The notes: a model not told the origin generated them from the letters alone. A DNA stretch of 64,000 nt from an uncultured Burkholderiales bacterium (GCA_964438505.1 CAYTKN010000014.1:5041-69040), one strand, 5' to 3'. Positions 7,871 through 63,784 are shown, counted from the stretch's first letter. Translations and numbers: made by a program.

Positions 7871-7930
7871 ACAGGCCCCGGCAGGGCCCGGCAGCCGGCA
7901 GGCACTGCCAGGGCCTGACCGGACCGCCGG

Positions 7931-37306: not shown

Positions 37307-37744
37307 TCACATGCCGAGCTCGGGCAGGTCGTCGGCGCTCTTCAGGTCGGTGTCGCCACCGGTGCTCTCGTCCGACCAACGCTGCGCGTTCCAGATCTCG
37401 AAGTGCGTGAAGCTGCCGGCGACGACCACGTCGCGGTCGATCCCCGCGTACTCCCGGAGGTTGGCGGGGATGGCGACCCGGCCCTGCCGGTCGGGAACCA
37501 CCTCGGTGGCCCCGGCGAAGAGCGCTCGCGCCATGCGCCGCTCCCGCTCGCCCTGTCGCATCAGCTCCCTGGTGCTCATCGCCACCTTCTCCCACTCCTC
37601 GGGCGGGTAGACGGCCAGGCAGGGATCGCGTCCCTTGACCACGACCGCCCCGTCCTCGAGGAGCTCGCGGAACTTGGCCGGGAGGATGAGCCGCCCCTTG
37701 GCGTCCACCGTGTGCTGGAACTCGCCGAGGAACTGCATCCCCAC
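37307..37744 (-). CDS. mraZ: Transcriptional regulator MraZ
   Basis: Two SpoVT/AbrB-like repeats with VDAKGRLILPAKFR and PDRQGRVAIPANLR. First gene of the dcw cluster. Confidence 0.95.
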   Translation of the reverse strand: MGMQFLGEFQHTVDAKGRLILPAKFRELLEDGAVVVKGRDPCLAVYPPEEWEKVAMSTRELMRQGERERRMARALFAGATEVVPDRQGRVAIPANLREYAGIDRDVVVAGSFTHFEIWNAQRWSDESTGGDTDLKSADDLPELGM

Positions 37745-39271: not shown

Positions 39272-40246
39272 GTGGCCAGACGCGCGACCGACCGGAGCGC
39301 GGCGTTCCGACGCCGCTTCGAAGCGCTCGTCGACAACGTCGACCGCGTCCTCAAGGGCAAGCGGGACGCGATCGAGCTGGTGCTCACGTCGCTGCTCGCC
39401 GAGGGCCACCTCCTCATCGACGACGTGCCGGGGGTCGGCAAGACGACCCTGGCCAAGGCGCTCGCCCGCTCGATCGACGGGACCTCCCAGCGGATCCAGT
39501 TCACCCCCGACCTCCTCCCCTCGGACGTGACCGGCGTGTCGGTCTGGCACCAGGCGCGCAAGACCTTCGAGTTCCGCCCCGGACCGATCTTCGCCAACTT
39601 CACGCTCGCCGACGAGATCAACCGCGCGTCGCCCCGTACCCAGTCGTCGCTCCTCGAAGCGATGCAGGAGCGCCAGGTGACCGTCGACGGGCAGACCTAC
39701 GAGCTCGGCGACCCGTTCATGGTGATCGCCACCCAGAACCCGGTCGAGCACGAGGGCACCTACTCGCTGCCCGAGGCGCAGCTCGACCGCTTCCTGATGC
39801 GGATCCAGATCGGCTACCCGAGCCGGGAGACGGCGCTCGAGATCCTGGGCGCTCAGGCCGACGCCGTGGAGGTCGACGAGCTCGAGCCCGTCGTCACCCT
39901 CGGCGAGGTCGTGACGATGAGCCGGGTGGTCCGCGGCGTGCACGTCGCACGCTCCCTCCAGGGCTACATCATGGACGTCGTGGAGCAGACCCGCGAGCAC
40001 CCCGACCTGACGCTCGGGATCAGCCCCCGGGGGGCGATCGCGCTCCAGCGCGCGGCCCGGGCGCTGGCTGCGGGGCGCGGCCGGGAGTTCGTCGTCGCCG
40101 ACGACCTCAAGGCCCTGACGGGCCCCGTGCTCGCGCACCGGCTGCTCGTGGCGCCCGAGGCGCAGCTCCGGGGCGTCACCGCCTCCGAGGTGCTCGACGA
40201 GATCCTCGCCGCCATCCCCGTGCCCCGGGTGAGGAACCGCCCGTGA
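39272..40246 (+). CDS. moxR: MoxR-like AAA+ ATPase
   Basis: Walker A DDVPGVGKTTLAKA, Walker B FTLADEINRA, ATQNPVEHEGTYSLPEAQLDRF. Confidence 0.93.
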   Translation: MARRATDRSAAFRRRFEALVDNVDRVLKGKRDAIELVLTSLLAEGHLLIDDVPGVGKTTLAKALARSIDGTSQRIQFTPDLLPSDVTGVSVWHQARKTFEFRPGPIFANFTLADEINRASPRTQSSLLEAMQERQVTVDGQTYELGDPFMVIATQNPVEHEGTYSLPEAQLDRFLMRIQIGYPSRETALEILGAQADAVEVDELEPVVTLGEVVTMSRVVRGVHVARSLQGYIMDVVEQTREHPDLTLGISPRGAIALQRAARALAAGRGREFVVADDLKALTGPVLAHRLLVAPEAQLRGVTASEVLDEILAAIPVPRVRNRP

Positions 40247-44766: not shown

Positions 44767-45912
44767 TCAGCGCAGGGCACCCGGTCCGAACCGCTCGCGC
44801 ACGGCGTCGACCGCCGCGTCGACGGAGCGTCGATCCGTGGCGGGCCCGAAGGGCAGGCGCTGCTGCTGGAAGCCGTCCGTCCGGAGGTTGGAGACCCCCA
44901 CCCCCACGAGGCGCAGGCCCGCGGCGGCGTCCACCGACGCGAGCAGGTCGAGTGCGGCGCGAGCGAGCGCCTCGTCGTGGTCGGTCGGCTCCTCGAGGGT
45001 CGCGGACCGCGTCGAGGTTCGGAAGTCGCCCGAGCGCACCTTGAGCGTGACGGTGCGGCCGTGCAGGCGGCCCTCGCGCAGCCGGGCACCGACGCGGCGG
45101 GCGAGGCGCCGCACCTCGCCGCGGAGCACCCCGACGTCCGCGACGTCGTCGGGGAACGTCTCCTCGGCGCTGATCGACTTGGCGGCCCGGTCCGAGGCCA
45201 CCGTCCGCTCGTCGTCGTTCCAAGCCAGCGCGTGGAGGTGCGCTCCGTGGGCGGCGCCGAGCGAGCGGACGAGGCTGTCGAGCGGCACGCGGGCCAGGTC
45301 GCCGACCGTGCGCACGCCGAGGCGCTCGAGGCGCTCGCGGGTCGCCGGGCCGACCCCCCACAGGTCGCCGACCGGCCGGGGGTGCAGGAAGGAGAGCTCC
45401 TCCCCCGGCGCCACCACCGTCGACCCGTCGGGCTTGGCGTCCCCGCTGGCGAGCTTCGCCACCAGCTTGGTGGTCGCCACACCCACCGAGCAGGTGAGGC
45501 CCGTCTCGCCGTGGACCCGCTCCCGGATGCGGCGGGCGATCTCCGGGCCGGACCCGAAGAGCCGCCGGACACCCGCGACGTCGAGGAACGCCTCGTCGAT
45601 CGAGATCGGCTCCACCAGCGGGGTGAACGACTCGAGGATCGCGAGCACCTCGGCGCTCAGCTCCCGGTACGTGTCCATCCTCGGCGCCAGGAACACCCCG
45701 TCCGGGCACAGACGGCGGGCCCGCTCGGTCGGCATGGCCGAGCGCACGCCGAACCGCCGTGCCTCGTAGCTGGCCGCCGAGACGACGCCCCGCCGCCCGG
45801 TGCCGCCGACGACGACGGGCCGGCCCCGCAGGCGCGGATCGAGGAGCTGCTCGACCGACGCGTAGAACGCGTCGAGGTCGACGTGGAGCATCGACGGCTG
45901 GGCCACGCTCAC
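44767..45912 (-). CDS. dinB: DNA polymerase IV (Y-family)
   Basis: HVDLDAFYASVE and SIDEAFLDV motifs, little-finger domain. GTG 45912 overlaps the upstream NUDIX stop (GTGA). Alternative ATG at 45891. Confidence 0.93.
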   Translation of the reverse strand: MSVAQPSMLHVDLDAFYASVEQLLDPRLRGRPVVVGGTGRRGVVSAASYEARRFGVRSAMPTERARRLCPDGVFLAPRMDTYRELSAEVLAILESFTPLVEPISIDEAFLDVAGVRRLFGSGPEIARRIRERVHGETGLTCSVGVATTKLVAKLASGDAKPDGSTVVAPGEELSFLHPRPVGDLWGVGPATRERLERLGVRTVGDLARVPLDSLVRSLGAAHGAHLHALAWNDDERTVASDRAAKSISAEETFPDDVADVGVLRGEVRRLARRVGARLREGRLHGRTVTLKVRSGDFRTSTRSATLEEPTDHDEALARAALDLLASVDAAAGLRLVGVGVSNLRTDGFQQQRLPFGPATDRRSVDAAVDAVRERFGPGALR

Positions 45913-46412
45913 GCGCCGTCGAGCCGCTCGACCCGCAGCGACCGGAGGTCGCGCCCGCGCACCGAGTAGCGGTAGCGCCGGTGCCCGGCGGCGTCCCAGC
46001 GTGCGCCGATCCACTCGTCCAGCGGCTCGCGCACCCACCGGTGGCAGCCGGCGAGCAGCGACGAGCACTCGTCCTCGGTCACGAACGCGGCGTCGACCAC
46101 GATCCCGTCGGGGTCCTCCACCGCGAGCTCGCCCTCGTAGCGCCGGGCGACGAACACCTGGGCGAGCAGCTTCCAGCCCATCTCGGGCGCCGCGGCCGAC
46201 ACCTCGTAGACCGGGCCGTGCCAGTCGGTGACCGTGATGCCGGTCTCCTCCCGCACCTCCCGGGTGAGACCCGCGACGACACCCGCGTCGGAGTCGTCGA
46301 TCACACCGCCGGGCGGGCTCCAGTCGTCGCCGCCCCACCGGCGCCGGTTGCGTACCAGGAGGATGCCGTCAGGGCCCTCGACGAGCCCGCCGGCCACGAC
46401 CCACTCGTGCAC
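45909..46412 (-). CDS. NUDIX hydrolase
   Basis: Nudix-box-like GGVIDDSDAGVVAGLTREVREETGI. Confidence 0.85.
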   Translation of the reverse strand: MHEWVVAGGLVEGPDGILLVRNRRRWGGDDWSPPGGVIDDSDAGVVAGLTREVREETGITVTDWHGPVYEVSAAAPEMGWKLLAQVFVARRYEGELAVEDPDGIVVDAAFVTEDECSSLLAGCHRWVREPLDEWIGARWDAAGHRRYRYSVRGRDLRSLRVERLDGA

Positions 46413-47535: not shown

Positions 47536-47599
47536 GCCCGGCCGCCGAGCCCGGCCGCTGAGCTCAGCCTCCGAGCTCAGCCTCCGAGCGAGAGCCTCC
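47506..47599. repeat. 13-bp tandem repeat array (about 7 units: GAGCCCGGCCGCT then GAGCTCAGCCTCC) at a convergent gene junction
   Basis: Read directly. It contains the stop codons of both flanking genes (47533-47535 plus strand, 47577-47579 minus strand). Confidence 0.9.
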
Positions 47600-48293
47600 G
47601 GAACGCCTCCGCGTAGCGCACGCCCGCCCGCCGACCGCCGTCCTCGGCCCGCTCGCGGAGGAACTCGCGGAACCAGTCGCCGGTCTCGACGAGCTGGCTG
47701 GCGTGCCGGAACAGGGCGTCGATCTTGGTCTCGATCGTGTCGCCGATGTCGACCCAGCAGTTGGGCTCGAAGGTCGCCGACAGGAAGACCTCGGAGACCT
47801 CGTGGGTCTCCAGGCCGGCGGCGAGCTGCTCCCGGAAGTAGTGGGGGTTTCCGGCCGCCGGTGCCACGGCGTCGAGGGCCGCCCACCCGGTGACGCGGTG
47901 GTCCCGGTGGTTGAAGTACCGGTCGCCGAAGAACACCGCCGTGGGGTCGGGACAGACGACGGCCGCGGGGCGGAGGCGGCGGATGTGCTCGACGATCTCG
48001 CCGCGCAGCTCGACGTCGTTCTCGACCTCGCCGTCGGGGTGGTCGAGGTGGAAGTGGTCGGCGAATCCCATCAGCTCGGTGGAGGCGGCGCTCTCCTCCA
48101 CCCGCAGCCGGATCAGCTCCTCGGGGTCCTGGTCCGGGTCCTGGGAGCCCTTCTCGCCGGTGGTGCACACCAGCAGCCAGACCGTCGCCCCCGCGCGGGC
48201 CCACCGGGCGAGGGTCCCGCCCGCCGCGATCTCGGCGTCGTCGGGATGGCCGTAGACGGCGAGGACGCTGTCGGGAACCTCGGTGTGGAGCAC
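47577..48293 (-). CDS. PIG-L/LmbE-family N-acetylglucosaminyl deacetylase
   Basis: VYGHPDDAEIAAGGTLA zinc-binding motif and HRDH motif. Confidence 0.85.
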   Translation of the reverse strand: MLHTEVPDSVLAVYGHPDDAEIAAGGTLARWARAGATVWLLVCTTGEKGSQDPDQDPEELIRLRVEESAASTELMGFADHFHLDHPDGEVENDVELRGEIVEHIRRLRPAAVVCPDPTAVFFGDRYFNHRDHRVTGWAALDAVAPAAGNPHYFREQLAAGLETHEVSEVFLSATFEPNCWVDIGDTIETKIDALFRHASQLVETGDWFREFLRERAEDGGRRAGVRYAEAFRRLSLGG

Positions 48294-50506: not shown

Positions 50507-51538
50507 TCAGCCGAAGAAGACGCTGGCGACCTCGTAGACGCGCATGTCGACGGTCTTGAGCTCGGCGACGGCGTCGGCGAGCGGCACGCGCTCGATGTGC
50601 TCGCCGCGCAGCGCCATCATCTTCCCGAAGTCCCCCTCGTGGACCGCGTCGACGGCCTCGACCCCGAAGCGGCTGGCCAGCACCCGGTCGTAGGCCGTGG
50701 GGGTGCCGCCCCGCTGGATGTGACCGAGGATCGTGACCCGGGTCTCGAAGCGGGTGCGCTCCTCGATCGCCTCCTGGATGGCGTTGCCGATCCCGCCGAG
50801 GCGCACGTGGCCGAACTCGTCGGTCCCGGCCTCCTGCACGCTCATCGTGCCCTCCTTGGGGACGGCGCCCTCGGCCACCGCCACGATCGAGAAGCTCGCC
50901 CCCCGCCGGTGGCGGCGCCTGATGTGGTCGCAGACCTCCTCGATGTCGAAGGGCACCTCGGGAATGAGGATCACGTCCGCGCCCCCGGCCAGACCCGAGT
51001 GGGTCGCGATCCAGCCGGCGTGACGGCCCATCACCTCTACCACCATCACCCGGTCGTGGGACTCGGCGGTGGTGTGGAGGCGGTCGATGGCGTCGGTGGC
51101 GGTCTGCACCGCGGTCTGGAACCCGAACGTGAAGTCGGTGGACGACAGGTCGTTGTCGATGGTCTTGGGCACGCCGACCACGGGGAAGCCCTCCTCCGCG
51201 TGGAGCCGGTGGGCGACGCCGAGGGTGTCCTCGCCGCCGACCGCCACGAGCGCGTCGACGTGCTCTCCCCGGATCGTCTCGAGGACCCGCGCCACGCCGT
51301 CGTCGCTCTTGTAGGGGTTCGTCCGGGAGGTCCCGATGATCGTGCCGCCCCGGTGGAGGATCCCCCGGGTGTTGGTGATCGTCAGGTCGTCGAACTCGCC
51401 GTCCATGACGCCCCGCCAGCCGCTGCGGAAGCCGACGACGTTGTGCCCGTAGCGGCCCTCTCCCTTGCGCACCACCGCACGGATCACCGCGTTGAGGCCG
51501 GGGCAGTCGCCGCCGCCGGTCAGCAGTCCGATTCGCAT
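50507..51538 (-). CDS. pfkA: 6-phosphofructokinase (ATP- or PPi-dependent, PfkA family)
   Basis: GGGDCPGLNAVIR, PKTIDND and GHIQRGG motifs. Confidence 0.93.
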   Translation of the reverse strand: MRIGLLTGGGDCPGLNAVIRAVVRKGEGRYGHNVVGFRSGWRGVMDGEFDDLTITNTRGILHRGGTIIGTSRTNPYKSDDGVARVLETIRGEHVDALVAVGGEDTLGVAHRLHAEEGFPVVGVPKTIDNDLSSTDFTFGFQTAVQTATDAIDRLHTTAESHDRVMVVEVMGRHAGWIATHSGLAGGADVILIPEVPFDIEEVCDHIRRRHRRGASFSIVAVAEGAVPKEGTMSVQEAGTDEFGHVRLGGIGNAIQEAIEERTRFETRVTILGHIQRGGTPTAYDRVLASRFGVEAVDAVHEGDFGKMMALRGEHIERVPLADAVAELKTVDMRVYEVASVFFG

Positions 51539-51719: not shown

Positions 51720-51725
51720 TAGGAT
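51720..51725 (+). promoter_or_regulatory. Candidate -10 hexamer (TAGGAT) for a leaderless glpK transcript starting at GTG 51733
   Basis: TANNNT ends 7 nt before the in-frame GTG, which would give MGVVIAIDAGTTG. Confidence 0.4.
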
Positions 51726-53211
51726 GCACGCCGTGGGAGTCGTCATCGCCATCGACGCGGGCACCACCGGCGTGCGCGCCATCGCCTTCGACGAGCGCGG
51801 GCGGCCCGGATCATCCTCGTACCGGGAGTTCCCCCAGCACTTCCCCGGCCCCGGGTGGGTCGAGCACGACCCCGAGGAGATCTGGCAGGCCACCGCGACG
51901 GTCCTCGACGAGGTCGTGCGCTCCCTGGAGGGCGAGCCGGTCGCCTGCATCGGCATCACCAACCAGCGCGAGACCACCGTGGTGTGGAGCGCGGCGACGG
52001 GCAGGCCGCTGCACCGGGCCCTCGTGTGGCAGGACCGCCGCACCGCGGCGCGCTGCGAGGAGCTGAAGGAGGCCGGAGCGGAACCCGACGTCCGCAGTCG
52101 CACGGGGCTCGTGCTCGACCCCTACTTCTCGGGCACCAAGCTCGAGTGGCTCCTCACCGAGGGCGGTGTGCCCGCGGACGCCGATCTGGCCTTCGGCACC
52201 GTCGACTCCTGGATCCTCCACCGCCTCACCGGCGGCGCGGAGGGTGGCGTGCACGCGACCGACCCCTCGAACGCGTCCCGCACGCTCCTCTACGACATCG
52301 GTCGCCTCGACTGGAGCGACGAGCTGCTCGAGCGCTTCGGCGTCCCGCGCTCGTGCCTGCCCGAGGTGCTGCCCTCGAGCGGGCACTTCGGGACGACCCG
52401 CCCCGAGTGCGCCGCCGGCCTGGAGGTGCCCGTCACCGGCATCGCCGGCGACCAGCAGGCGGCGCTCTTCGGCCAGGCGTGCTTCGACCCGGGGCTCACC
52501 AAGAACACCTACGGCACCGGCTCGTTCGTGCTGATGAACGTGGGCGCCGCGCCCCCGCGACCGGCGGAGGGCCTCCTCACGACCGTCGCGTGGGACCTGG
52601 GCGGCGAGACGACCTACGCGCTCGAAGGCGCCGTGTTCGTCACCGGAGCCGCCGTCCAGTGGCTGCGCGACGGCCTCGGGATGATCGGCGACGCCTCGGA
52701 GACGGCGCCGCTGGCCGAGAGCGTGGAGACCACCGAGGACGTCTACTTCGTACCGGCGTTCACCGGCCTCGGCTCCCCCCACTGGGACCCGTACGCCAGG
52801 GGCACGATCGTCGGCCTCACGCGGGGCACGACCCGAGCCCACCTCGCCCGCGCCGCGGTCGAGGCGATGGCGTACCAGACCCGCGACGTGGTCGACGCCA
52901 TGGGCGCGGCCTCCACCACCGAGGTGGCCGAGCTGCGCGCCGACGGGGGCGCCAGCGTCATGGACGTGCTGTGCCGCTTCCAGGCCGACCTGCTCGGCGT
53001 CCCGGTGCTCCGTCCCCGCGTGGCCGAGACCACCGCGCTCGGCGCCGCCTACCTGGCCGGCCTCGCCCGGGAGGTGTGGGGATCCACCGACGAGCTCGCC
53101 GAGCACTGGCTCCTCGACCGCGAGTTCGAGCCGAGGCCCGACGACACGATCGAGGGCCGCTACGCCGACTGGGCCCGGGCGGTCGACCGGGCGCGGGGCT
53201 GGGCGAGGTGA
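51724..53211 (+). CDS. glpK: Glycerol kinase (start ATG 51724 or GTG 51733)
   Basis: AIDAGTTGVRA, GWVEHDPEEIW and ITNQRETTVVW motifs, full-length FGGY kinase. Confidence 0.95.
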   Translation: MHAVGVVIAIDAGTTGVRAIAFDERGRPGSSSYREFPQHFPGPGWVEHDPEEIWQATATVLDEVVRSLEGEPVACIGITNQRETTVVWSAATGRPLHRALVWQDRRTAARCEELKEAGAEPDVRSRTGLVLDPYFSGTKLEWLLTEGGVPADADLAFGTVDSWILHRLTGGAEGGVHATDPSNASRTLLYDIGRLDWSDELLERFGVPRSCLPEVLPSSGHFGTTRPECAAGLEVPVTGIAGDQQAALFGQACFDPGLTKNTYGTGSFVLMNVGAAPPRPAEGLLTTVAWDLGGETTYALEGAVFVTGAAVQWLRDGLGMIGDASETAPLAESVETTEDVYFVPAFTGLGSPHWDPYARGTIVGLTRGTTRAHLARAAVEAMAYQTRDVVDAMGAASTTEVAELRADGGASVMDVLCRFQADLLGVPVLRPRVAETTALGAAYLAGLAREVWGSTDELAEHWLLDREFEPRPDDTIEGRYADWARAVDRARGWAR

Positions 53212-54694: not shown

Positions 54695-55885
54695 CTACGC
54701 GAGCTTGGTCAACGCCTTGCGGAGGCCCCGGATCGCCTGGTTGGTCCGCTGCTCGTTCTCCACCAGCGCGAAGCGCACGTGGTCGTCGCTGTCGGGCCCG
54801 AACCCGACCCCGGGCGACACCGCGACCTTCGCCTCCTTCACGAGCATCACGGAGAAGTCGAGGCTGCCCATCTCGCGGTAGGCGTCGGGGATGCGTGCCC
54901 ACACGAACATCGTCCCCTTCGGCTTCTCGACCTCCCACCCGATGCGGCCGAGGCCCTCGCAGAGCGTGTCGCGCCGCCGGAGGTAGATGTCGTTGACCTC
55001 CTTGGGGTACTCGGGCGCCTCGTTCATCGCCACGATCGAGGCGATCTGGATCGGCTGGAAGGTCCCGTAGTCGAGGTACGACTTGAGCTTGGCGAGCGCG
55101 GCGACGACCTCGGGGTTGCCCACCAGGAAGCCCACCCGCCACCCGGGCATCGAGAAGCTCTTGGTGAGCGTGTAGAGCTCGACGGCGACGTCCTTGGCCC
55201 CCTCGACCTGGAGGATGGACGGCGGCACGTGGCCGTCGAACGCCGTCTCCGCGTAGGCGAAGTCGTGGACGACGAGGACCTCGCGCTCGCGGGCGAACGC
55301 GACCAGCTCCTCCATGAACGACAGGTCGACGCACGTGGTGGTCGGGTTGTGCGGGAACGACACGAGGATCACCCGCGGCCGGGGCCACTGGCGCTCCCAC
55401 GACGCCTTGACGTTGTCGAGGAACTCCTCCCCGGTGCCGTCGGAGCCGAGGTCGACCTGCTGCACCTCGGCGCCGGCGAGGAACGGCGCGTAGATGTGGA
55501 TCGGGTACGACGGGGAGGGCACCATCGCCGAGTCGCCGGGCTGGACGAGCACCCACATCAGGTGCGACAGGCCCTCCTTGGCGCCGATCGTGGTGATGGC
55601 CTCGGTCTCGGGGTCGAGCTCCACGCCGAAGCGCCGGATGTAGAGGTCGGTGATCGCCTTGCGCAGGTTCGGGATCCCGCGGCTGGCCGAGTAGCGGTGG
55701 TTCCGCGCGTTGTGGGCCGCCTCGCAGAGCTTCTCGACCGCCACGTCGGGCGAGGGGATGTCGGGGTTGCCGAACCCGAGGTCGATGACGTCCTCTCCGG
55801 CCCGTCTCGCCTCGAGCTTGAGCTGGTTGATGGTGGAGAAGACGTAGGGAGGGAGGCCCTGGATGCGACGGAACTCGTAGGGCAT
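54695..55885 (-). CDS. PLP-dependent class I aminotransferase (alanine/aspartate aminotransferase-like)
   Basis: GFGNPD, Y..S.G and PLP-lysine region [15 protein letters not shown]. Confidence 0.9.
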
Positions 55886-55944: not shown

Positions 55945-56730
55945 GTGTCAGTCTCGTCAGTCTCGTCAGTCTCGTCAGTCTCGTCAGTCTCCTCGTCGTT
56001 CGACGCCGTCTTCATCGACGTGGGAGGGGTGCTGCTGCTCCCCCGCCACGAGCTGGTCTCCGCGGCCCTCGAGCGGGCAGGCCACGACGTCGGAGACGAC
56101 CTCGACGCGGACCTGCTCGACCGCGCCCACTACCACGGCGCCGCCGCCCTCGCGCAGTGGCCGGTGGCCCGGCGGGGCACCCACCGCGACGCGGCGATCT
56201 ACGAGGTCTTCAACGCCGCGTACACGAGGGCGGTGGGCGTGCACGACCACCTGCTCGACGACGCCAGAGCCGCGCTCGGCACCGCCTTCGGCCACCCCGA
56301 CATGTGGACGCGGCCCGCGCTCGGCGCGGCCGAGGGCCTCGCCCGCCTCGGCGCGACCGGCGCGAGGCTCGCCATCGTCTCCAACGCTGACGGCCAGATC
56401 GAGAGGATCCTCTCCGAGCTCGGGATCTGCCAGGTCGGCGAGGGCCCCGGCACCCCCGTCGACGCGATCCTCGACTCGCACGTCGTCGGCGTCGCCAAGC
56501 CCGACCCGCGCATCTTCGAGATCGCCCTCGAGGAGCTCGGCGTGGAGCCCGAGCGCGCCGCCCACGTCGGGGACATCGTGGGCGCCGACGTGGAGGGCGC
56601 GCGGGCGGCGGGCGTCCACCCGCTCCACTACGACCCCTACCGGCTCTGCGACCTCGACGACCACGACCACGTGGCCTCGCTCGACGAGGTGGCCGAGCTC
56701 GTCACAGCAGCGGCCGGATCACCTCGCTGA
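55945..56730 (+). CDS. HAD-superfamily hydrolase with (SVS)n N-terminal repeat
   Basis: Motif I FIDVGGVL, motif II IVSNA, motif [22 protein letters not shown] start at 55945. Confidence 0.8.
55947..55991. repeat. 9-bp tandem repeat x5 (GTCAGTCTC) directly after the HAD start codon
   Basis: Read directly. It also lies 60-105 nt upstream of the divergent aminotransferase gene. Confidence 0.9.
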
Positions 56731-57520
56731 CGATCGCCGCGTTCTCCTCGCGGCCGGGAGCGACCGGCGCCAGCACCAGCCAGCGAGCCCCGGCGTCGAC
56801 GATGCGCCGCAGCGTCGCGGCCATCGACTCGAACGGCCCCGCCAGCACGTCGGGACGCCGGCGCGCCTCGTCCCAGCGGTCCTCGCGCAGCTCCACGAGG
56901 CCGGCCCAGGTGGGCACCACCTCGCCCTCGCGCCGATCCGCCGCCGCGCACGCCGCCCGGAGGCGCTGCACCTCGCGGGCGAACGCGTCGGGCGAGAGCC
57001 CCCACCCGTTCCACCCGTCGGCCAACCCGGCGACCGTGGCGAGGATCGGCTCGGAGCGGCCCCCGACCCACACCGGGTACCCCCGACCGTGGAGCGTCTC
57101 GATCGTCCGCTCGAGCGCGCCGACCCGCAGCGCCATGCCGCCGGTGGGCAACCCGAACATCTCCTGCTCGGGGTCCGAGAGCCGGTCCCCGCTGCCGACG
57201 CCGGCGATCACCCGGCCGGGCGCGAGGCGCTCGAGGGAGTCGAAGCTCGCCGCGAGCGTCGCGGCGTGGCGGACACCCGCGCGGGCGACCAGCGACCCGA
57301 GGGCGATCCGCTCCGTCTCCACCGCCAGCGCGCCGAGCACCGGCTCGAGCGCCAGCGACGGCCCGCCGGCGTCGGAGCCGATGCGGTAGAGGTGGTCGAA
57401 GGTGAACACGCCGTCGACACCGGAGCGCTCCGCGGCCCGCGCCACGGCCACGAGCACCTCGGGGTCCTCGACGAAGGTCGGCAGCGTCAACCCGAGACGA
57501 ACCGGTGCGCGCTCGGTCAC
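56702..57520 (-). CDS. Luciferase-like monooxygenase (LLM) class oxidoreductase, possibly F420-dependent
   Basis: TIM-barrel LLM pattern (RLGLTLPTF...FDHLY...GVGSGD). The GTG start overlaps the ROK kinase stop. Confidence 0.75.
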   Translation of the reverse strand: MTERAPVRLGLTLPTFVEDPEVLVAVARAAERSGVDGVFTFDHLYRIGSDAGGPSLALEPVLGALAVETERIALGSLVARAGVRHAATLAASFDSLERLAPGRVIAGVGSGDRLSDPEQEMFGLPTGGMALRVGALERTIETLHGRGYPVWVGGRSEPILATVAGLADGWNGWGLSPDAFAREVQRLRAACAAADRREGEVVPTWAGLVELREDRWDEARRRPDVLAGPFESMAATLRRIVDAGARWLVLAPVAPGREENAAIVSEVIRPLL

Positions 57521-58461
57521 GGCTGCCCGCCCCCGGCCAGCTCGCGCGCCAGGGCCGCCGCGCCGATCGCGCCCGCCCGCTCGCCGAGCGCGGCGGCGAC
57601 GATCGGCACCTCCGGGCGGTCGCCCGGCGCCTCGATGCGGCCCCGGAACTCGTCGCGCACCGGGTCGAGCAGCACGTCGCCGAGCCGCACCAGGCCCCCG
57701 CCCACGACGACCAGCTCCGGGTCGAGGACGTTGACGAGTCCGGCGAGGCCGACGGCGACCCACCGGGCCAGCTCCGCGACGATCCGGGCCGCCTCGGGGT
57801 CGCCGGCCCGGGCGGCGTCACCGACGAGCACGCCGGTGACCGCGCCGGCGTCGCCACCCGCGCGCTCCACGACCTCGCGTGCCCGACCCGCGGCCGCCGC
57901 CTCGCGCCCGAGGCGCCCCAGCGCCTGCCCCGAGGCCATCGCCTCCCAGTGGCCGCGCTCGCCGCACGGGCACCGCGGCCCGTCGTCCGCGACCTGGAAG
58001 TGGCCGATCTCCGCGGCGAAGCCGTGGGCGCCGCGCAGCAGCCGGCCACCGCTGACGATCCCCCCGCCGACACCGGTCCCGAGGGTCACGACGAGCACGT
58101 GCTCGTGGCCGCGGGCCGCGCCGTGGCGCACCTCCCCCCAGGCCGCGGCGTTCGCGTCGTTGTCGACGAGCGCCGGGGCTCCGAGCGCGCGCCCGAGGCG
58201 CTCGGCGAGCGGGAGGCCCTGGAGCGCGGCGACGTTGGGGGCCCCCAACGTGACGCCTCCCGGACCGACCATGGCGGCAGCGCCGACACCGACCGGGAGG
58301 CCCTCACCGAGGCGCCTCGCGAGGCCCGCGAGCGCGTCGACGAGCCCGTCGGCCGTCGTCGGAGTCTCGACGCGGTGCTCCTCCACGATCGTCCCGCGGT
58401 CGTCGACCCGCGCCCCGAAGATCTTCGTGCCCCCCAGGTCGAGGCCGACGGTGTCCGACAC
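57517..58461 (-). CDS. glk: ROK-family glucokinase
   Basis: LDLGGTK, TLGTGVGGGIV and the ROK zinc motif CPCGERGHWEA. Confidence 0.88.
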   Translation of the reverse strand: MSDTVGLDLGGTKIFGARVDDRGTIVEEHRVETPTTADGLVDALAGLARRLGEGLPVGVGAAAMVGPGGVTLGAPNVAALQGLPLAERLGRALGAPALVDNDANAAAWGEVRHGAARGHEHVLVVTLGTGVGGGIVSGGRLLRGAHGFAAEIGHFQVADDGPRCPCGERGHWEAMASGQALGRLGREAAAAGRAREVVERAGGDAGAVTGVLVGDAARAGDPEAARIVAELARWVAVGLAGLVNVLDPELVVVGGGLVRLGDVLLDPVRDEFRGRIEAPGDRPEVPIVAAALGERAGAIGAAALARELAGGGQP

Positions 58462-58474
58462 GCGCGGTCCGCCC

Positions 58475-59590
58475 TCAGAAGCGCAGCAGGGCGCCGACAC
58501 GGCCGAGGACGTCGAGGTCGGCGTTCTCGCAGATCTCGACGCGGGAGCCGCCGGCGAGGGCGACGTCGATGGCCTCGCCCACGACGTCGTCGACCCGCTC
58601 CATCTCCCCCTGGCACATCGGGCACTCCTTGCCCCGCACAGCGAGGAAGTCGCAGCGGGTGCAGTGCCAGCCCTGCTCCTCGTAGCCGTGCGACACCACC
58701 AGCAGGTCGACGCGGCGCTCGTAGATCGCCCGCAGCGTGTCGTGGAGACCCGCGACCCCACGCTGCTCGGCGCCGACCGCCTCCTTGAGCGCCTCGACCA
58801 CCTCGGCCTCGTGGCGGCGCTCGACCTCGAGCTCGACCTCGAGGGCGGCCTGCTTGATCTCGGACTCGGAGGCCTGGAGCGACACCGACACCCGGTCGAC
58901 GACCCGCTCGCGCACGTAGCTGTGCAGCAGGTCCTCGAACTCGGAGCGCGCCTCGTCGGGCCCGCCGAGGATGACGCGGTCGGCGTGGGAGCGCTCGAGC
59001 TCGTGGAAGGTGACCTCGGCCGCGTGGCGGAGGTGCCGCCGCGCCAGCTCGTCGGTGTGGCGCTGCACGTGGGAGGCCGCCCGTCCACCCTCGTCGGTGG
59101 CGTCGACGCGGGCCGGCACCGGATCGAACACCTCGCTGCGCTCGACCAGCTCGCCCAGCTCGAAGTGGAACAGCCGCGCCCGCTGCCGGTCGACGAGGAC
59201 CACCATGAACCGCTGGAACTCGTCGAGGACGAACTCGAGCTGGCGCAACGCCGGAGCCTGGTTGAGGACGACCTGGTTGCGCACCGGCCTGGGGACCTCC
59301 ACCACCTCGAAGAGGTCGCCGCAGACGAAGAACGCGAGGCCCCGCACCCGGGAGCGGTCGAAGCCCCGGAAGATCCACGAGCGGACCTTCTCGAGGTCCT
59401 CGTCGATCCGGGAGCGCTCGATCCCCCGCTCCTCGGCGAGGCGGACCGCACGGCGCACCAGGTCGTCGAGGTGCGGGTCGACGTCTGCGAGCTTCGGGAA
59501 GCGGCTGCCGTCGACATCGAGGTACAGGCTGATCACCGCCGGGTCGCCTCGGAACGACGCCAGCTCCCGCAGGTGCTCCTCGGTGATCAT
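58475..59590 (-). CDS. eRF1/Pelota-like protein (bacterial archaeo-eukaryotic release-factor-type, baeRF-like)
   Basis: Three-part layout that I read as eRF1-like. The central region has DEGGRAASHVQRH where a GGQ loop would sit. The C-terminal domain (GLHDTLRAIYERRVDLLVV) has an inserted CxxC..CxxC zinc ribbon (WHCTRCD...ECPMCQ). Assignment is by eye only. Confidence 0.65.
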   Translation of the reverse strand: MITEEHLRELASFRGDPAVISLYLDVDGSRFPKLADVDPHLDDLVRRAVRLAEERGIERSRIDEDLEKVRSWIFRGFDRSRVRGLAFFVCGDLFEVVEVPRPVRNQVVLNQAPALRQLEFVLDEFQRFMVVLVDRQRARLFHFELGELVERSEVFDPVPARVDATDEGGRAASHVQRHTDELARRHLRHAAEVTFHELERSHADRVILGGPDEARSEFEDLLHSYVRERVVDRVSVSLQASESEIKQAALEVELEVERRHEAEVVEALKEAVGAEQRGVAGLHDTLRAIYERRVDLLVVSHGYEEQGWHCTRCDFLAVRGKECPMCQGEMERVDDVVGEAIDVALAGGSRVEICENADLDVLGRVGALLRF

Positions 59591-59603
59591 TCGGCGTCGT
59601 CGA

Positions 59604-59858
59604 TCATCGGGGGTCGTCCTCCACTCGGATCCGCTGGACCCGCGACGCTCCGGACCCGGGCCGGGACTCGGGCCGGCGCTGCTGCTCGATCACGTGCTCG
59701 GCGACCTCGATCATCGACTTCGCCGCGGCCACCAGCTCGGCGGCGGCGCCGACGAGGTGGTCGAAGGTCTCCGGGCTCGTGCTCCTGGCGGTCAGGAAGA
59801 ACCCACCGATCGGGCACGCGTAGCACTCGTCGTGGTGTCGGTGATCGTCGTCGCTCAT
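59604..59858 (-). CDS. Small Cys/His-motif protein (possibly DUF5304-type)
   Basis: 84 aa with N-terminus HRHHDECYACPIGGFF followed by a helical region. It sits where actinobacterial ArsA-like loci carry a small conserved protein (from memory). Confidence 0.55.
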   Translation of the reverse strand: MSDDDHRHHDECYACPIGGFFLTARSTSPETFDHLVGAAAELVAAAKSMIEVAEHVIEQQRRPESRPGSGASRVQRIRVEDDPR

Positions 59859-59913
59859 GGCGTCTCCCGAGCAGGCATGTCGGTGCTCGCAGGCATCTCA
59901 TGCCTCGACACGG

Positions 59914-61080
59914 TCATCCTTCGACGAAGGCGACCTCGAGGCGCTCACCGACGATACGAGCACCGTCCACCTCACGTCGACGCAGGCTGTCGGGGAGCAG
60001 CACCGACCGCCGGTAGGGGCCCAGCGCCACGAGCAGCTCGCCGTCGGCGCGGGCGAGGTCGAGGTCGGCGCCCTCCGCGAACGGCAACGGCAACGAGAGC
60101 ACGAGGCACCCGTCGCGCGCCTCGACCCGGAAGCTCTCGCCCTCGTGGAACCGCCCGTCGGCCTCCGCGTCGCCGTACACGCCGGCGGCCAACTCGGCGA
60201 GGCGCTCGGCGCCGACGGGCTCGTCGGGCGCGAGCGGGGCCTGGAGCACGGGCACCGGGGAGAAGGCGTCCTCGATCTCGGCGAGCTGCTCCTTCTGGAT
60301 CCGCCGCCACGACGCGAACCACGGGTCGGTGACCGCGTCGGGCAGCAGCCGGTTCGCGATGACCGCGTCCACGTGGTACCCGAAGAGGGCGAGGTAGGTG
60401 AAGGTGCGCCGCGCCTCGGCCACCACCATCCGCTCCGGGTTGACGACGAGCCGGGCGCTTGTGACCTCGGGGTCGGCGAGCAGGTCGCGGACGCCGTCGA
60501 GGCGCCGGTAGAAGCGCTCGGCGGCGGAGAACACGCCGTCGCCCGCGATCGGGACGTCGGTCATCCGCCGCAGCACCGGCGCCGCAGCCCGGGTGAGCGC
60601 CCGCTGGGCGGGGAACACCCGCTCCATGTACCGGGCCATCACGTCGGGCAGCGAGAGCAGCCGGATGGTCTCGGCGGTCGGCGCGCAGTCGACCACGAGG
60701 AGGTCCCACTCCCCCGAGTCGGCCCACGCCTTGATGTCGGAGAGGGCGAACACCTCGTCGAGGCCGGGCACGACGGCGAGCTCCTCGGCCTCGAGGCTGT
60801 CCGCGCCCGCCCAGTCGAGGACGTGCACGAGGTAGTCGCGGATGCCGCTCCACGCCTCCTCGAGCCGGCCGCGGGCGTCGAGCTGCTGGGCCGCGAGGCG
60901 CGGCGCCAGCTCGACCGGCTCGTCACCGAGGCCGGTGCCGAAGGCGTCCGCGAGGGAGTGCGCCGGGTCGGTCGAGAGCACGAGCGTCCGGCGCCCGGCC
61001 CGGGCCGCCTGCACGGCGGTGGCGGCGGCGACCGTCGTCTTCCCGACGCCGCCTTTCCCGGTGAACAGCAGGATCCGCAC
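59914..61080 (-). CDS. ArsA/Get3-family P-loop ATPase with C-terminal HSP20/CS-like domain
   Basis: Deviant Walker A FTGKGGVGKTT and STDPAHSL signature. The C-terminal ~85 aa is beta-rich (FRVEARDGCLVLSLPLP...LEVAF). GTG start at 61080. Confidence 0.9.
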   Translation of the reverse strand: MRILLFTGKGGVGKTTVAAATAVQAARAGRRTLVLSTDPAHSLADAFGTGLGDEPVELAPRLAAQQLDARGRLEEAWSGIRDYLVHVLDWAGADSLEAEELAVVPGLDEVFALSDIKAWADSGEWDLLVVDCAPTAETIRLLSLPDVMARYMERVFPAQRALTRAAAPVLRRMTDVPIAGDGVFSAAERFYRRLDGVRDLLADPEVTSARLVVNPERMVVAEARRTFTYLALFGYHVDAVIANRLLPDAVTDPWFASWRRIQKEQLAEIEDAFSPVPVLQAPLAPDEPVGAERLAELAAGVYGDAEADGRFHEGESFRVEARDGCLVLSLPLPFAEGADLDLARADGELLVALGPYRRSVLLPDSLRRREVDGARIVGERLEVAFVEG

Positions 61081-61091
61081 GGCGGGGCAGG

Positions 61092-61526
61092 CTATCCCTC
61101 GACGACCTTCTTGAGTTCCTTGAGGGCGTTGTTGACGATCCGCCCCTCGGCCCGGCGCTTCACGAGGCCCGGGAGCGGCAGCGCGAGGTCGACGGCGAGC
61201 TCGTAGGTGACCCGCGTGCCTCCGTCCTCCTCGTCGAACCGGTAGGTGCCGTCCAGGCGCTTGACGAGATCGCCCTCCACCAGCGACCACGACAGGGCAC
61301 CGGGCGCGTCGGCGTAGTCGTACGCGAGGGTGTAGGTGACGCTGCGGCCCATGGCGGCGGCGCGGTAGCGGACCTGGTCGGGGCGTCCCTCGTCGTCGCG
61401 CTCGACGACGGTGACGTCCTTGATGTCCTTGGCCCACTCCGGGTACCGCTCGAAGTCCGCCGCCACCTCGTAGCAGCGCTGCGGGCCGGCGTCGATGTGG
61501 ATGCGTTCGGTCGTCTGCTCGGCCAC
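61092..61526 (-). CDS. SRPBCC (START/polyketide cyclase-dehydrase fold) family protein
   Basis: 144 aa with CYEVAADFERYPEWAKDIKDV..., the typical SRPBCC pattern. GTG start at 61526. Confidence 0.85.
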   Translation of the reverse strand: MAEQTTERIHIDAGPQRCYEVAADFERYPEWAKDIKDVTVVERDDEGRPDQVRYRAAAMGRSVTYTLAYDYADAPGALSWSLVEGDLVKRLDGTYRFDEEDGGTRVTYELAVDLALPLPGLVKRRAEGRIVNNALKELKKVVEG

Positions 61527-61567: not shown

Positions 61568-61801
61568 TCAGCTCTCCCCGAGCGGCGTCCGGCGTTGGAC
61601 GACGTGCCAGAAGTAGCCGATGAGGACGGCGTTGCCGACCAGCAGCCAGGCGGTGGCGACCGCCGCCCACAGCCAGCGGATCCAGGAGCGGCGGTCGTCC
61701 CCGCCGCCGGCGAACTGGTCCGGGCGTCGCTGGTAGCAGTCGAGGAGGGCGACGAGGGCGGGGAACTCGAGCGCCAGGGCGACCAGCACCAGGTCGCTCA
61801 C
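61568..61801 (-). CDS. Small membrane protein, PLD-nuclease N-terminal (PLDc_N)-type
   Basis: 77 aa with ALLDCYQRRPDQF...W..W..LVGNAVLIGYF pattern. The GTG start overlaps the upstream stop. Confidence 0.7.
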   Translation of the reverse strand: MSDLVLVALALEFPALVALLDCYQRRPDQFAGGGDDRRSWIRWLWAAVATAWLLVGNAVLIGYFWHVVQRRTPLGES

Positions 61802-62361
61802 CGCCGCCGCTCCGGGAACTCCCCGTACCGGGCGCCCCACAAGCCGGCGAGCGCCAGGGGCAGCACGGGCTCCAGCACCCCGAAGGGGGCGTCCACGGCG
61901 GTGGCGCCGGCCACGACGAGGGCGACGGCGAACGAGCCGAGGAGATGCACCTGCACCGGCCTCGGCGCGGTGCCCTGAAGGAAGAACAGGCCGACGAGTT
62001 CGATCTCGTCGTAGCGGCTGCGGCCGACCGCCCGGGCGAAGGCCAACGCCCACACGATCACGCCGGCGACGAAGCAGGCGAGGGCGACCGCGGCGGCGGG
62101 GGTCTCGAGCGCGTCCACCCCGGCGCGGTCGGCCACCGCGGTGGCGGCGAAGAGCCCGGTGGTGGCCCACGAGGTCCACAGCACCCGCGCCCCCGGCAGC
62201 TCGCCGGCCCGCTGCGACCGGTGCCCGCTGCCGGACGTGCCGCCGGGCTCGTCGCCGGGCTCGTTGCCGGGGGTGCTCTCAGGCGTGCCGTTGGGTGTGC
62301 TGTGAGGCGCGCCGTTGGGTGTACTGCCGGGCTCGGGAGGAGGCTGGCGGGGGTCGCTCAC
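61798..62361 (-). CDS. Hypothetical integral membrane protein with Pro/Gly/Thr-rich N-terminus
   Basis: 187 aa with 4 predicted hydrophobic helices. No family recognised. Confidence 0.6.
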   Translation of the reverse strand: MSDPRQPPPEPGSTPNGAPHSTPNGTPESTPGNEPGDEPGGTSGSGHRSQRAGELPGARVLWTSWATTGLFAATAVADRAGVDALETPAAAVALACFVAGVIVWALAFARAVGRSRYDEIELVGLFFLQGTAPRPVQVHLLGSFAVALVVAGATAVDAPFGVLEPVLPLALAGLWGARYGEFPERRR

Positions 62362-62437: not shown

Positions 62438-62471
62438 CGACACTGCTACTCGACACTGCTACTCGACGCTG
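62438..62471. repeat. 13-bp tandem repeat x2.6 (CGACACTGCTACT) spanning the stop codon of CDS 62459..63784
   Basis: Read directly. Confidence 0.85.
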
Positions 62472-63784
62472 GGGTCGTGGCGGAGGCGTCCCGCCGGGAC
62501 CGGGGGCTCGACGGGCACCCAGTCGTGCGGGCCGGGCACCGCCACGAGGGCCCCGTCGTCCCACCGCCACGGGCTCACGCCGGCGCCGCGGGCGAGGAGC
62601 CGGCCGTCGCGGTCGCGCGCGAGCGACACCCCCGGGAGCGGCACCGTCACAGCGCCACCCGCAGTGTCTCCCGCATGGTCTGTCGCACGGTCGCTCGCAC
62701 GGTCCCTGCGAGCGCCAGTGTCGGCGGCAGTACCAGCAGCAGTGCCGGCGGGAGTGTCCGCGGCAGTGTCGGCGGTCGTGTCGAGCGGGCGGGTGATGCC
62801 GAGACCGCCGGCGGCGTGGACGGAGACCACGAGGTCGGCGACCTGCACCCCCTCCGCGGCCAGGCGGCGCAGCAGCCCGCCGTCGGCGCCCACGGCCAGG
62901 GGCGCCGGGCATCGGTCGAGGCCGAGCTCGTGGGCGAGGCGGGCACCCATGGTGGCGCGGAGCAGGCGGGAGTGGGGCCGGCGCCGGTAGGCGGCGAGCA
63001 GCCCGGGCGGCGCGCCGACGTCGGTGACGGCCGACGCGACCTGCGCGACCCGCGCCCAGGCCTCCCGCTCCCCCACCACCACCTCGGGGCGGGTGGCACG
63101 CAGCGATGCCACGACGTCCGAGGCGGTCCTGCCAGCCCCAGCCCTGCCGGAGCCAGCCGTGCCGGAAGCAGCGCTGTCGGGCGTGGCAGCAGCCATCTCG
63201 AGCGAGCCTCCGAGGAGGGGGTGCAACGCCAGCGCGACGAGGAGCCCGGGCCGGGCGCCGAGCGGCACCCCGCACCACACCGCCGACGCGTCTCCGGCGC
63301 CGAGCCACTGGAGCAGGGAGCGGGCGGCGTCGGCGACGTCGCCGTGGCGGATGACGACGGGTAGCTCACCCGGCACGGCGCGGAGGAAGGCGGGATCGGG
63401 GGGCGTCACGGCGGAGGCGAGGACCTCGAAGTGGTCGGGGTGGTCGGCGTCGACCCGGCGCCCGAGCTCCTCGAGGTGCTCCGCGTCGGCGGCGCGCACG
63501 GTCTCCTCTGCGAGTCCAGGGGAATCGCCGGAAGCATCGCGGGGGGAATCGCCGCGGGAATCGCTGGGGGCGTCGACGACGATGCCGCCGGCGGCGAGGA
63601 CGGCGCGGAGGAGGTCGAGGTGCTGCTGCGGGTCCGCGGCGTCGACCTCCACGGGGGTGCCCGGCTCGAGCCCGGTCTCGGCGAGGCCGACGGCGAGGGC
63701 GCGGACGCCGAGGCCGTCGAGACCGGGGACGCGGGTGTGGACGGCCCGCCGGAAGGCCTCGACGACGGTCGCGGGCCCGCTCAC
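62459..63784 (-). CDS. Degenerate adenylate-forming (ANL/acyl-CoA synthetase-like) protein
   Basis: Overall order resembles AMP-binding enzymes (..VVIRHGDV..WCGVPL..HPLLGG..), but the Ser/Thr/Gly P-loop is absent and low-complexity inserts are present. Assignment is tentative. Confidence 0.5.
   Translation of the reverse strand: MSGPATVVEAFRRAVHTRVPGLDGLGVRALAVGLAETGLEPGTPVEVDAADPQQHLDLLRAVLAAGGIVVDAPSDSRGDSPRDASGDSPGLAEETVRAADAEHLEELGRRVDADHPDHFEVLASAVTPPDPAFLRAVPGELPVVIRHGDVADAARSLLQWLGAGDASAVWCGVPLGARPGLLVALALHPLLGGSLEMAAATPDSAASGTAGSGRAGAGRTASDVVASLRATRPEVVVGEREAWARVAQVASAVTDVGAPPGLLAAYRRRPHSRLLRATMGARLAHELGLDRCPAPLAVGADGGLLRRLAAEGVQVADLVVSVHAAGGLGITRPLDTTADTAADTPAGTAAGTAADTGARRDRASDRATDHAGDTAGGAVTVPLPGVSLARDRDGRLLARGAGVSPWRWDDGALVAVPGPHDWVPVEPPVPAGRLRHDPSVE

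Follow-up and report, generated by a model that had tools for sequence, protein, structure and literature searches.

We analysed a 64,000-nt stretch of DNA, hereafter the window, from an uncultured Burkholderiales bacterium (GCA_964438505.1, CAYTKN010000014.1:5041-69040), and counted all coordinates from its first letter. On its minus strand, six tightly packed open reading frames (ORFs) span 56.7-61.5 kb and encode an SRPBCC protein, a Get3/ArsA-fold ATPase with an HSP20-like domain, an 84-aa protein (p84), a 371-aa protein of baeRF-1 family 10 (baeRF10), a ROK kinase and an LLM oxidoreductase (Table 1). The intergenic gaps along this string are 11, 55, 13 and 13 nt, and the last junction is a GTGA overlap. 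A preliminary description, made from the sequence alone, had given the first four genes with their spacing and the continuation into the ROK and LLM genes. The ORFs and Pfam matches bear this out, along with its SRPBCC and ArsA/Get3 plus HSP20 calls (Polyketide_cyc2, ArsA_ATPase, ArsA_HSP20), and the motifs GKGGVGKTT, DPAHS and HHDECYACP read exactly as it claimed. For the 371-aa protein, the nearest characterised relatives are the Balon hibernation factors, not release or rescue factors. We read the whole string, with about even confidence, as a set of independent modules arrayed together for stress or dormancy and probably co-transcribed.

Table 1. Genes and features of the minus-strand string, in 5' to 3' order along that strand.
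Feature	Position	Strand	Support
SRPBCC/START-fold protein, 144 aa, GTG start	61092..61526	-	Pfam Polyketide_cyc2 E 5e-17, Polyketide_cyc 8e-14
Get3/ArsA-fold ATPase with C-terminal alpha-crystallin (HSP20-like) domain, 388 aa	59914..61080	-	Pfam ArsA_ATPase 1e-82
ATPase core of the 388-aa protein	about 60166-61080	-	
HSP20/alpha-crystallin-like domain of the ATPase, aa 326-385	59926..60105	-	Pfam ArsA_HSP20 E 2e-16
84-aa protein (p84): N-terminal ECYACPIG, central helix FDHLVGAAAELVAAAKSMIEVAE, C-terminal RVQRIRV tail	59604..59858	-	
baeRF-1 family 10 protein, 371 aa, three-domain aeRF1 fold	58475..59590	-	PF18854 E 2.5e-31
G168-G169-R170, position aligned with GGQ of aRF1/eRF1	59081..59089	-	HMMER alignment
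Zinc ribbon C310, C313, C323, C326, inserted in the 371-aa protein's C-terminal domain	58613..58663	-	
ROK-family sugar kinase, 314 aa, no helix-turn-helix, 13 nt past the baeRF10 stop	57517..58461	-	Pfam ROK 2e-65
LLM-class (F420-type) oxidoreductase, 272 aa, start overlapping the ROK stop (GTGA)	56702..57520	-	Bac_luciferase 1e-20

The 371-aa protein matched PF18854 (baeRF_family10) over residues 113-252 with 109.3 bits, against a cut-off of 27.1. When we searched the PDB with a profile of 71 homologues (A2), Msmeg1130 Balon was the best match (E-value 5e-18, residues 5-371), with aRF1/eRF1 at about 1e-7 and Pelota at 0.014. The AlphaFold2 (AF2) model has a predicted local distance difference test score (pLDDT) of 89.7. 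With this model, Foldseek placed Msmeg1130 first (8v9l_z, template modelling (TM) score 0.80), then aRF1, then P. urativorans Balon (8rdw_B, 0.69) and Rv2629 (8v9k_z, 0.68), with Pelota and Dom34 far lower. The top NCBIfam matches were three ribosome-hibernation-factor models (scores below), and the aRF1 equivalog gave 52 bits against a cut-off of 235. The preliminary description had said that this protein reads like a release factor or Pelota. The part of the call that stands is the predicted eRF1 fold, on which the profile, the AF2 model and Foldseek agree; the part that does not is the nearest relative, which is Balon. It had also read the eRF1-like side through terminating or stalled ribosomes, and that reading gives way to the hibernation role described for the clade (PMC10901736). 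Sequence comparison suggests that, within the Balon/baeRF-1 radiation, the protein forms a branch of its own.

Homologues of Balon occupy the A site, make contact with both the decoding and the peptidyl-transferase centre, and inhibit translation; they have no NIKS or GGQ, and EF-Tu(GDP) is recruited via a beta-hairpin (Helena-Bueno et al. 2024, PMC10901736). Binding by Balon is possible even when the ribosome retains peptidyl-tRNA, and Balon genes typically lie within stress operons beside chaperones, e.g. Hsp20 and DnaK/J (PMC10901736). Like P. urativorans Balon, Msmeg1130 and Rv2629, the window protein is a bacterial three-domain aeRF1 homologue of about 370 aa in which NIKS and GGQ are absent, and its gene, as in Balon operons, adjoins a chaperone-type gene with an HSP20 domain. 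Unlike Balon, it has a four-cysteine zinc ribbon where Balon has the EF-Tu-contacting beta-hairpin. We also compared the HP motif of Balon, and found that an (H/F)P dipeptide is present in the conserved YLDVDGRRxPR loop of the family but is not invariant.

The family 10 clade of baeRF-1 was defined computationally by Burroughs and Aravind in 2019 (PMC6514570), with HPF as the sole neighbourhood reported for it and ArsA/Get3 unmentioned. The window protein shares the classical three-domain architecture of this family and keeps the ancestral zinc ribbon, whereas the 'well-conserved glutamine' of the published description (PMC6514570) is not general in our sample. With aeRF1, Pelota, Vms1 and acVLRF1 it has in common the RNase-H-like middle domain and the overall fold; unlike these factors it has a GGRAA loop and no NIKS. 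No gene for a partner GTPase or an ABCE1-type protein was seen within the string.

We looked closely at the positions that matter for peptide release. Residues 1-112 contain no NIKS. HMMER aligns the GGLSA consensus of the family profile to GGQSA of aRF1 (4af1), and the window residues G168-G169-R170-A171-A172 fall at this position, so that GGQ is changed to GGR and both the GGQ and the GGxSQ position lack a glutamine. Over 99 family members the loop is hypervariable, and it is the lowest-pLDDT block of the AF2 model, at 58. Q176, a glutamine that the close clade conserves, occurs in at least 90% of the 71 homologues. It sits two turns into a predicted helix that starts at residue 169 rather than at the loop tip, and only about a quarter of the 99 wider family members have it, counted by eye. 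As a side observation, this post-loop helix (residues 174-189) is unusually rich in conserved histidine and glutamate: H178 and H189 are present in at least 90% of the 71 homologues and E181 and H186 are invariant, while the eRF1 counterpart is rich in arginine and lysine. The helix might bind a metal or touch rRNA.

The family falls into two subclades. In the Acidimicrobiia type, the two CxxC motifs of the zinc ribbon are present in 120/120 homologues and the loop is degenerate, with GGxSQ in 0/120 (93 have no GGxS motif at all, and in the other 27 it ends in A or E). In the Nitriliruptoria type (for example L110:9543-10655 and proteins P0293-P0412), the CxxC motifs are present in 0/120, and the loop reads GGWSQ in 82/120 (68%) or GGWSA in 32/120 (27%). 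The Nitriliruptoria orthologues match PF18859 (acVLRF1) above its cut-off, and some are named 'Vms1/Ankzf1 family peptidyl-tRNA hydrolase' by NCBI. The window protein is of the first type: its ribbon cysteines C310, C313, C323 and C326 are all invariant in the 71 sequences, and in the alignment the ribbon falls at the beta-hairpin region of Msmeg1130. Because of the GGRAA loop, the hypervariability and the absence of GGxSQ, peptide release by the window protein appears unlikely; for the Nitriliruptoria-type subclade, the loop sequences make it possible.

The ATPase scored 253.7 bits with TIGR00345 (GET3_arsA_TRC40), against a cut-off of 135, and has a deviant Walker A motif (GKGGVGKTT), switch I (DPAHS) and switch II (DCAPTAET). 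The short start that gives 388 aa is backed by homologues of 386-410 aa that cover 99-100% of the protein. The best PDB sequence matches of the core were archaeal TRC40/Get3 (3zq6 at 2e-51). In the AF2 model (pLDDT 84), residues 318-387 are all-beta, and the only full-length fold matches were NosGet3d (8egk, TM 0.67) and AtGet3d (8elf, 0.63); the full-length alignment covers 8egk, 3igf and 8elf. The ATPase has the Get3d/NosAFP-type architecture. Like A. thaliana Get3d and Nostoc All4481 (Barlow et al. 2023, PMC10248533), it joins a Get3/ArsA ATPase to an alpha-crystallin domain at the C-terminus, and, like At/NosGet3d, it lacks the CxxC zinc hinge of Get3: D-P-W-F stands where archaeal Get3 reads C-E-F-C or C-D-F-C. 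Get3d carries the alpha-crystallin domain and binds tail-anchored clients in vitro (PMC10248533). There are also differences. Get3d is tied to photosynthetic lineages (PMC10248533), whereas the window-type ATPase occurs in non-photosynthetic Actinomycetota; the NosAFP equivalog NF050088 scored 139 against a cut-off of 325; the core is nearer in sequence to archaeal TRC40; and, unlike At/NosGet3d, in which the A-loop is missing, the ATPase has an NRLLP segment that aligns with the archaeal Get3 A-loop, and its switch regions look intact. We recognised no Get1/2- or Get4/5-type partner gene within the string.

Two other identities for the ATPase were considered and rejected. An ArsA arsenite pump does not fit: TIGR04291 scored 99.5 against 650, the protein is a single half and not a duplicated A1-A2, the pump signature DTAPTGHT is replaced by DCAPTAET, and there is no arsB, arsC or arsR within the string. 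Orthology with BagA/BagB (Rv3679/Rv3680) fails as well, with 62.7 bits against 521 for the NCBIfam BagB model and 40.6 against 400 for BagA. These proteins are also actinobacterial Get3-fold ATPases, but they form a heterodimer pair, while here there is a single ATPase gene with an extra HSP20 domain, of which only the N-terminal P-loop half aligns: the Rv3680 chain 6bs3_B matched residues 2-154 only (E-value 1e-13) and the Rv3679 chain 6bs3_A matched at 4e-7. The preliminary description had taken Rv3679/Rv3680 as relatives and drawn from them a lead to glycerol and nitric oxide, phenotypes that PMC10597346 cites from Hu 2019 and Whitaker 2020. With a Get3d/NosAFP-type fusion that is no BagAB orthologue and only a distant relative, this lead does not carry over. 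Transposon mutants of M. tuberculosis bagA/bagB are fitter under streptomycin (PMC12216072), which hints, by analogy with distant paralogues, that Get3-like ATPases touch translation stress.

The preliminary description had named DUF5304 (PF17230) among the profiles to search. For p84 there is a match, limited to the helix region, and at 22.4 bits it stays under the cut-off of 26.8; a literature search for DUF5304 found nothing. With phmmer against 1.84 billion representatives we found 50 clusters (best E-value 1.6e-20), and their alignment (A4) has an ECYACP[VI]G motif in which C15 and P16 are invariant and C12 is shared by at least 90% of the sequences; it also has the amphipathic helix HLLxAAxEL..AAR and, at the C-terminus, an RV(R/Q)RIxV tail. 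It is a real conserved family, better treated as its own ECYACP family than as DUF5304. A homologous small gene comes after ArsA in 54 related loci, and in most Acidimicrobiia versions the cysteine motif is lost but helix and tail are retained. The tail looks like the IxI/V motif, which docks in alpha-crystallin domains, and from its sequence we infer that it might dock in that of the ATPase; likewise, the CxxC of p84 might act in trans for an ATPase that has no CxxC of its own. In one Nitriliruptoria lineage, ArsA and the CxxC small protein are separated by an inserted DsbB gene and a thioredoxin-like gene (L133:5318-6561, L134:1301-2544). This insertion is a hint that the small-protein cysteines may be redox-active.

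We sampled gene contexts in Acidimicrobiia and Nitriliruptoria, and the baeRF10-centred set comprised 80 genome loci. The ROK gene is directly downstream of baeRF10 in 70/77 informative loci with a median gap of 11 nt, and the LLM gene follows ROK within 1.2 kb in 25/66. The adjacency of the ATPase to the eRF1-like gene, which the preliminary description had reported for the window, recurs in relatives: ArsA is at most 4 kb upstream of baeRF10 in 37/63 informative baeRF10-centred loci, baeRF10 comes after ArsA in 24/28 informative ArsA-centred loci, and the pair is found in a second class, the Nitriliruptoria. Among the 37 loci, the small gene stands alone between ArsA and baeRF10 in 13; the other 24 have up to about 3 kb between them, occupied in the loci examined by a gene for a coiled-coil protein of 650-870 aa. 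SRPBCC orthologues precede ArsA with a median gap of -4 nt and overlap it in 32/53 loci, a spacing at which the two genes would often be translationally coupled; the median gap before baeRF10 is 57 nt.

The coiled-coil protein (L060:5416-7947, L048:5920-7980, L015:2895-5522) is not encoded in the window. Its gene is between the small protein and baeRF10 in about 31/80 baeRF10 loci, and in several of the loci examined it overlaps the small-gene stop or starts a few nucleotides later. It has a conserved N-terminus (MRLLQL..FHP..TVV.GL), and Pfam and NCBIfam gave no family for it, only a weak SMC-type coiled-coil match. In L101 it follows ArsA and the small gene without baeRF10 or ROK.

The two cassettes also occur apart. 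SRPBCC abuts baeRF10 without ArsA in 12 Acidimicrobiia loci, and neither ArsA nor SRPBCC is upstream of baeRF10 in 10 loci. In all four of those 10 that we scanned, a GT4 glycosyltransferase is upstream of baeRF10, preceded by Fer4_16 in L013 and L025. The order without the ArsA module is then Fer4-GT4-baeRF10-ROK in L013 and L025, and GT4-baeRF10-ROK in L035. The same backbone precedes the ArsA module in L083 and, with the glycosyltransferase only, in L082. Conversely, SRPBCC-ArsA-small-ROK-LLM without baeRF10 is found in L082, L083 and L106, and in L083 and L106 the string continues into aminotransferase, TetR and acyltransferase genes. We used the aminotransferase (54695-55885 in the window) as a control for synteny, and it is downstream on the same strand in 52/53 loci with 66-78% identity. 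With the aminotransferase at 52/53 and ArsA at 37/63, adjacency in Acidimicrobiia by itself does not single out a relationship between ArsA and baeRF10. Because the region is syntenic, the aminotransferase is kept more often and the cassettes occur apart, conserved adjacency is weak evidence of joint function. One apparent fusion of SRPBCC and baeRF10 (P0065, 521 aa, L006:7566-9128) was rejected as a frameshift in a long-read metagenome-assembled genome (MAG), because the L006 SRPBCC is split over two frames (7566-7871 and 7873-7995). We found no genuine gene fusion among the string families.

The second class was reached through the L110 baeRF10 homologue, which has 29% identity to the window protein and belongs, with its relatives, to the Nitriliruptoria (Nitriliruptorales and Egibacteraceae names). 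We compared eight Nitriliruptoria loci. The order SRPBCC-ArsA-small-baeRF10-ROK is found in L110 and L132, and L136, where the contig ends upstream, has a cut ORF and then small-baeRF10-ROK. L130 has the same core with AA_kinase in place of ROK, and L131 has a Germane-domain gene and others inserted within the core. In L133 and L134, the DsbB and thioredoxin-like insertion separates ArsA from the small gene, and L135 has SRPBCC-baeRF10-ROK without ArsA. The immediate flanks are unlike those in Acidimicrobiia, with Rhomboid/DZR upstream and AA_kinase or an ArgZ-like gene downstream. At longer range, the acyltransferase, FGGY, PFK, aminotransferase and PIG-L landmarks are common to these loci and the window. 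Of all our evidence, this conservation in Nitriliruptoria speaks most strongly for a core that goes beyond drifting synteny. The modules come apart in this class as well.

The string sits in a core chromosomal region. Near it are MraY, MurF and MurE (29589-33738), MraZ (37307-37744), a MoxR AAA ATPase (39272-40246), DinB (44767-46338), PIG-L (47577-48293) and PFK (50507-51538), and several of these landmarks reappear near the Nitriliruptoria cluster. The glycerol kinase that had been noted about 5 kb away is indeed there, an FGGY kinase at 51724-53211. On the 5' side of SRPBCC are a 187-aa ORF (61798-62361) and a 441-aa ORF (62459-63784), with coding-like GC content at third codon positions (GC3) and no Pfam match. 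GC3 of the called ORFs is 0.84-0.99, typical coding sequence for a 72%-GC genome. The ROK kinase scored 239 bits with TIGR00744 (ROK glucokinase family), just under the cut-off of 260, and the best NCBIfam matches of the LLM oxidoreductase were F420-dependent LLM subfamilies, every one below its cut-off. Two further contigs labelled as Burkholderiales MAGs, L001 and L011, carry an Acidimicrobiia-type locus in the same gene order, with baeRF10 identities to the window protein of 66% and 53%; their Burkholderiales label is probably binning contamination.

A scan of the window with promoter consensus sequences found no promoter-like sites and is uninformative for a high-GC actinobacterium. The terminator scan found one terminator-like site in all, not above shuffles and not within the string, and it is without power here. 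An Rfam scan over the whole window gave no match. The tight spacing and the lack of a terminator-like site inside the string are compatible with one transcript, and the string is probably read as one.

The explanation that we favour, as stated at the outset, is an array of independent modules. The string would be a segment of an old, vertically inherited Actinomycetota array, found in Acidimicrobiia and Nitriliruptoria. Its first module would consist of SRPBCC, the ECYACP small protein and the Get3d-type ATPase that carries the alpha-crystallin domain; driven by ATP, this module may hold or carry hydrophobic clients, which could be stretches of protein or lipid-like ligands. The second would be the 371-aa protein, which, by homology to Msmeg1130, Rv2629 and Balon, may sit in the A site of idle or paused ribosomes and contact the decoding and peptidyl-transferase centres; it would do so without peptide release, because NIKS and GGQ are absent. 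The third, the ROK kinase and the LLM oxidoreductase, would belong to ordinary sugar and redox metabolism. What the modules would share is a stress or dormancy regulon, and such an array fits the published Balon genes beside chaperone genes (PMC10901736). The combination is a variation on the theme of a Balon gene in a chaperone neighbourhood. In the library searched, Balon combined with Get3, ArsA or baeRF gave no paper linking the families, and the supplements of the Balon paper have no ArsA, Get3 or ROK terms.

Several points weigh against this array. The hibernation equivalogs NF052287, NF052288 and NF052289 all scored far under their cut-offs (77/330, 62/480 and 53/320 bits), so the transfer of Balon function to the window protein reaches across families. 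A cassette that is locally missing may be encoded elsewhere in the genome. The core is contiguous in Nitriliruptoria despite changed flanks and a baeRF10 at 29% identity, which exceeds what slow gene-order decay by itself predicts, so that a real functional tie is conceivable. Where genes are inserted after ArsA (L131, L133), the small protein is still beside baeRF10, and where the coiled-coil gene intervenes it is still beside ArsA; it might thus link the two.

Such a tie would be at its fullest in an integrated system, in which the Balon-like factor parks ribosomes that may still bear nascent chains, and the Get3d-like ATPase module catches or screens exposed hydrophobic segments or tail-anchor clients, with SRPBCC and the small CxxC protein co-expressed with the ATPase and the small protein acting as adaptor. 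The contiguous core in two actinobacterial classes, the 24/28 ArsA-centred loci and a small protein that stands next to either partner all speak for this, as do the binding of Balon to ribosomes with peptidyl-tRNA (PMC10901736), the in vitro binding of tail-anchored proteins by Get3d (PMC10248533) and the streptomycin fitness of Mtb bagAB mutants (PMC12216072), with the reservation that BagAB are only distant relatives. We nevertheless consider it unlikely, given that each cassette is found without the other at the same chromosomal site, that conservation is lower for the link between ArsA and baeRF10 than for that to an unrelated aminotransferase, that baeRF10 is preceded by a wider gap than the coupled ones within the first module, and that we found neither a gene fusion (P0065 being an artefact) nor, in the library searched, a paper linking the families. 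The narrower proposal of one bacterial pathway made up of SRPBCC, the ATPase, p84 and the Balon-like factor, where a Get3-type holdase serves parked ribosomes, some with nascent chains, by shielding or passing on hydrophobic segments and the C-terminal IxV-type tail of p84 bridges via the alpha-crystallin domain, we hold to be quite unlikely; if true, it would be a bacterial counterpart joining GET-type client capture to eRF1/Pelota/Vms1-type ribosome factors. Direct coupling of Get3 to the ribosome is neither excluded nor supported by our results.

At the other extreme, these may be unrelated housekeeping genes that lie side by side in a slowly rearranging core region near the dcw cluster. 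The long-range order of AMP-binding, PIG-L, ..., acyltransferase, FGGY, PFK and aminotransferase is common to the window, Acidimicrobiia and Nitriliruptoria, the aminotransferase is kept in 52/53 loci, and the cassettes are gained and lost independently. Synteny as the whole explanation is improbable to us all the same, since the core is unbroken and co-directional in both classes, its genes overlapping or set tens of nucleotides apart, even though its immediate flanks differ between them, and since chaperones are enriched in the published Balon neighbourhoods, which makes a shared stress regulon plausible. The remaining alternative concerns the 371-aa protein itself, as an active release or rescue factor, that is, a Vms1/acVLRF1-like peptidyl-tRNA hydrolase that frees stalled nascent chains. 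The NCBI names of some family members, the retained conserved glutamine for which Burroughs and Aravind singled out family 10 (PMC6514570), the GGWSQ loop (82/120) and above-cut-off PF18859 match of the Nitriliruptoria orthologues, and the conservation of Q176 in the close clade could all be read this way. For the window protein we regard it as very unlikely: its motif is GGRAA with no glutamine at the GGQ or GGxSQ position, none of the 120 Acidimicrobiia-type sequences has GGxSQ, Q176 is inside a helix and in about a quarter of the wider members, and GGWSA accounts for 27% even of the Nitriliruptoria type.

Two open questions converge at this locus: what bacterial Get3 homologues do and for which clients, and how cells tie Balon-type hibernation to proteostasis. 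Where a core region rearranges slowly, conserved adjacency should be checked against a synteny control before it is given a functional reading. The five-gene core that is kept across two actinobacterial classes is a concrete set of proteins for reconstitution. If the modules are independent, the locus still adds a Balon-family branch in which a zinc ribbon replaces the EF-Tu-contacting hairpin, a Get3d-type architecture from lineages that are not photosynthetic and a conserved ECYACP small protein.

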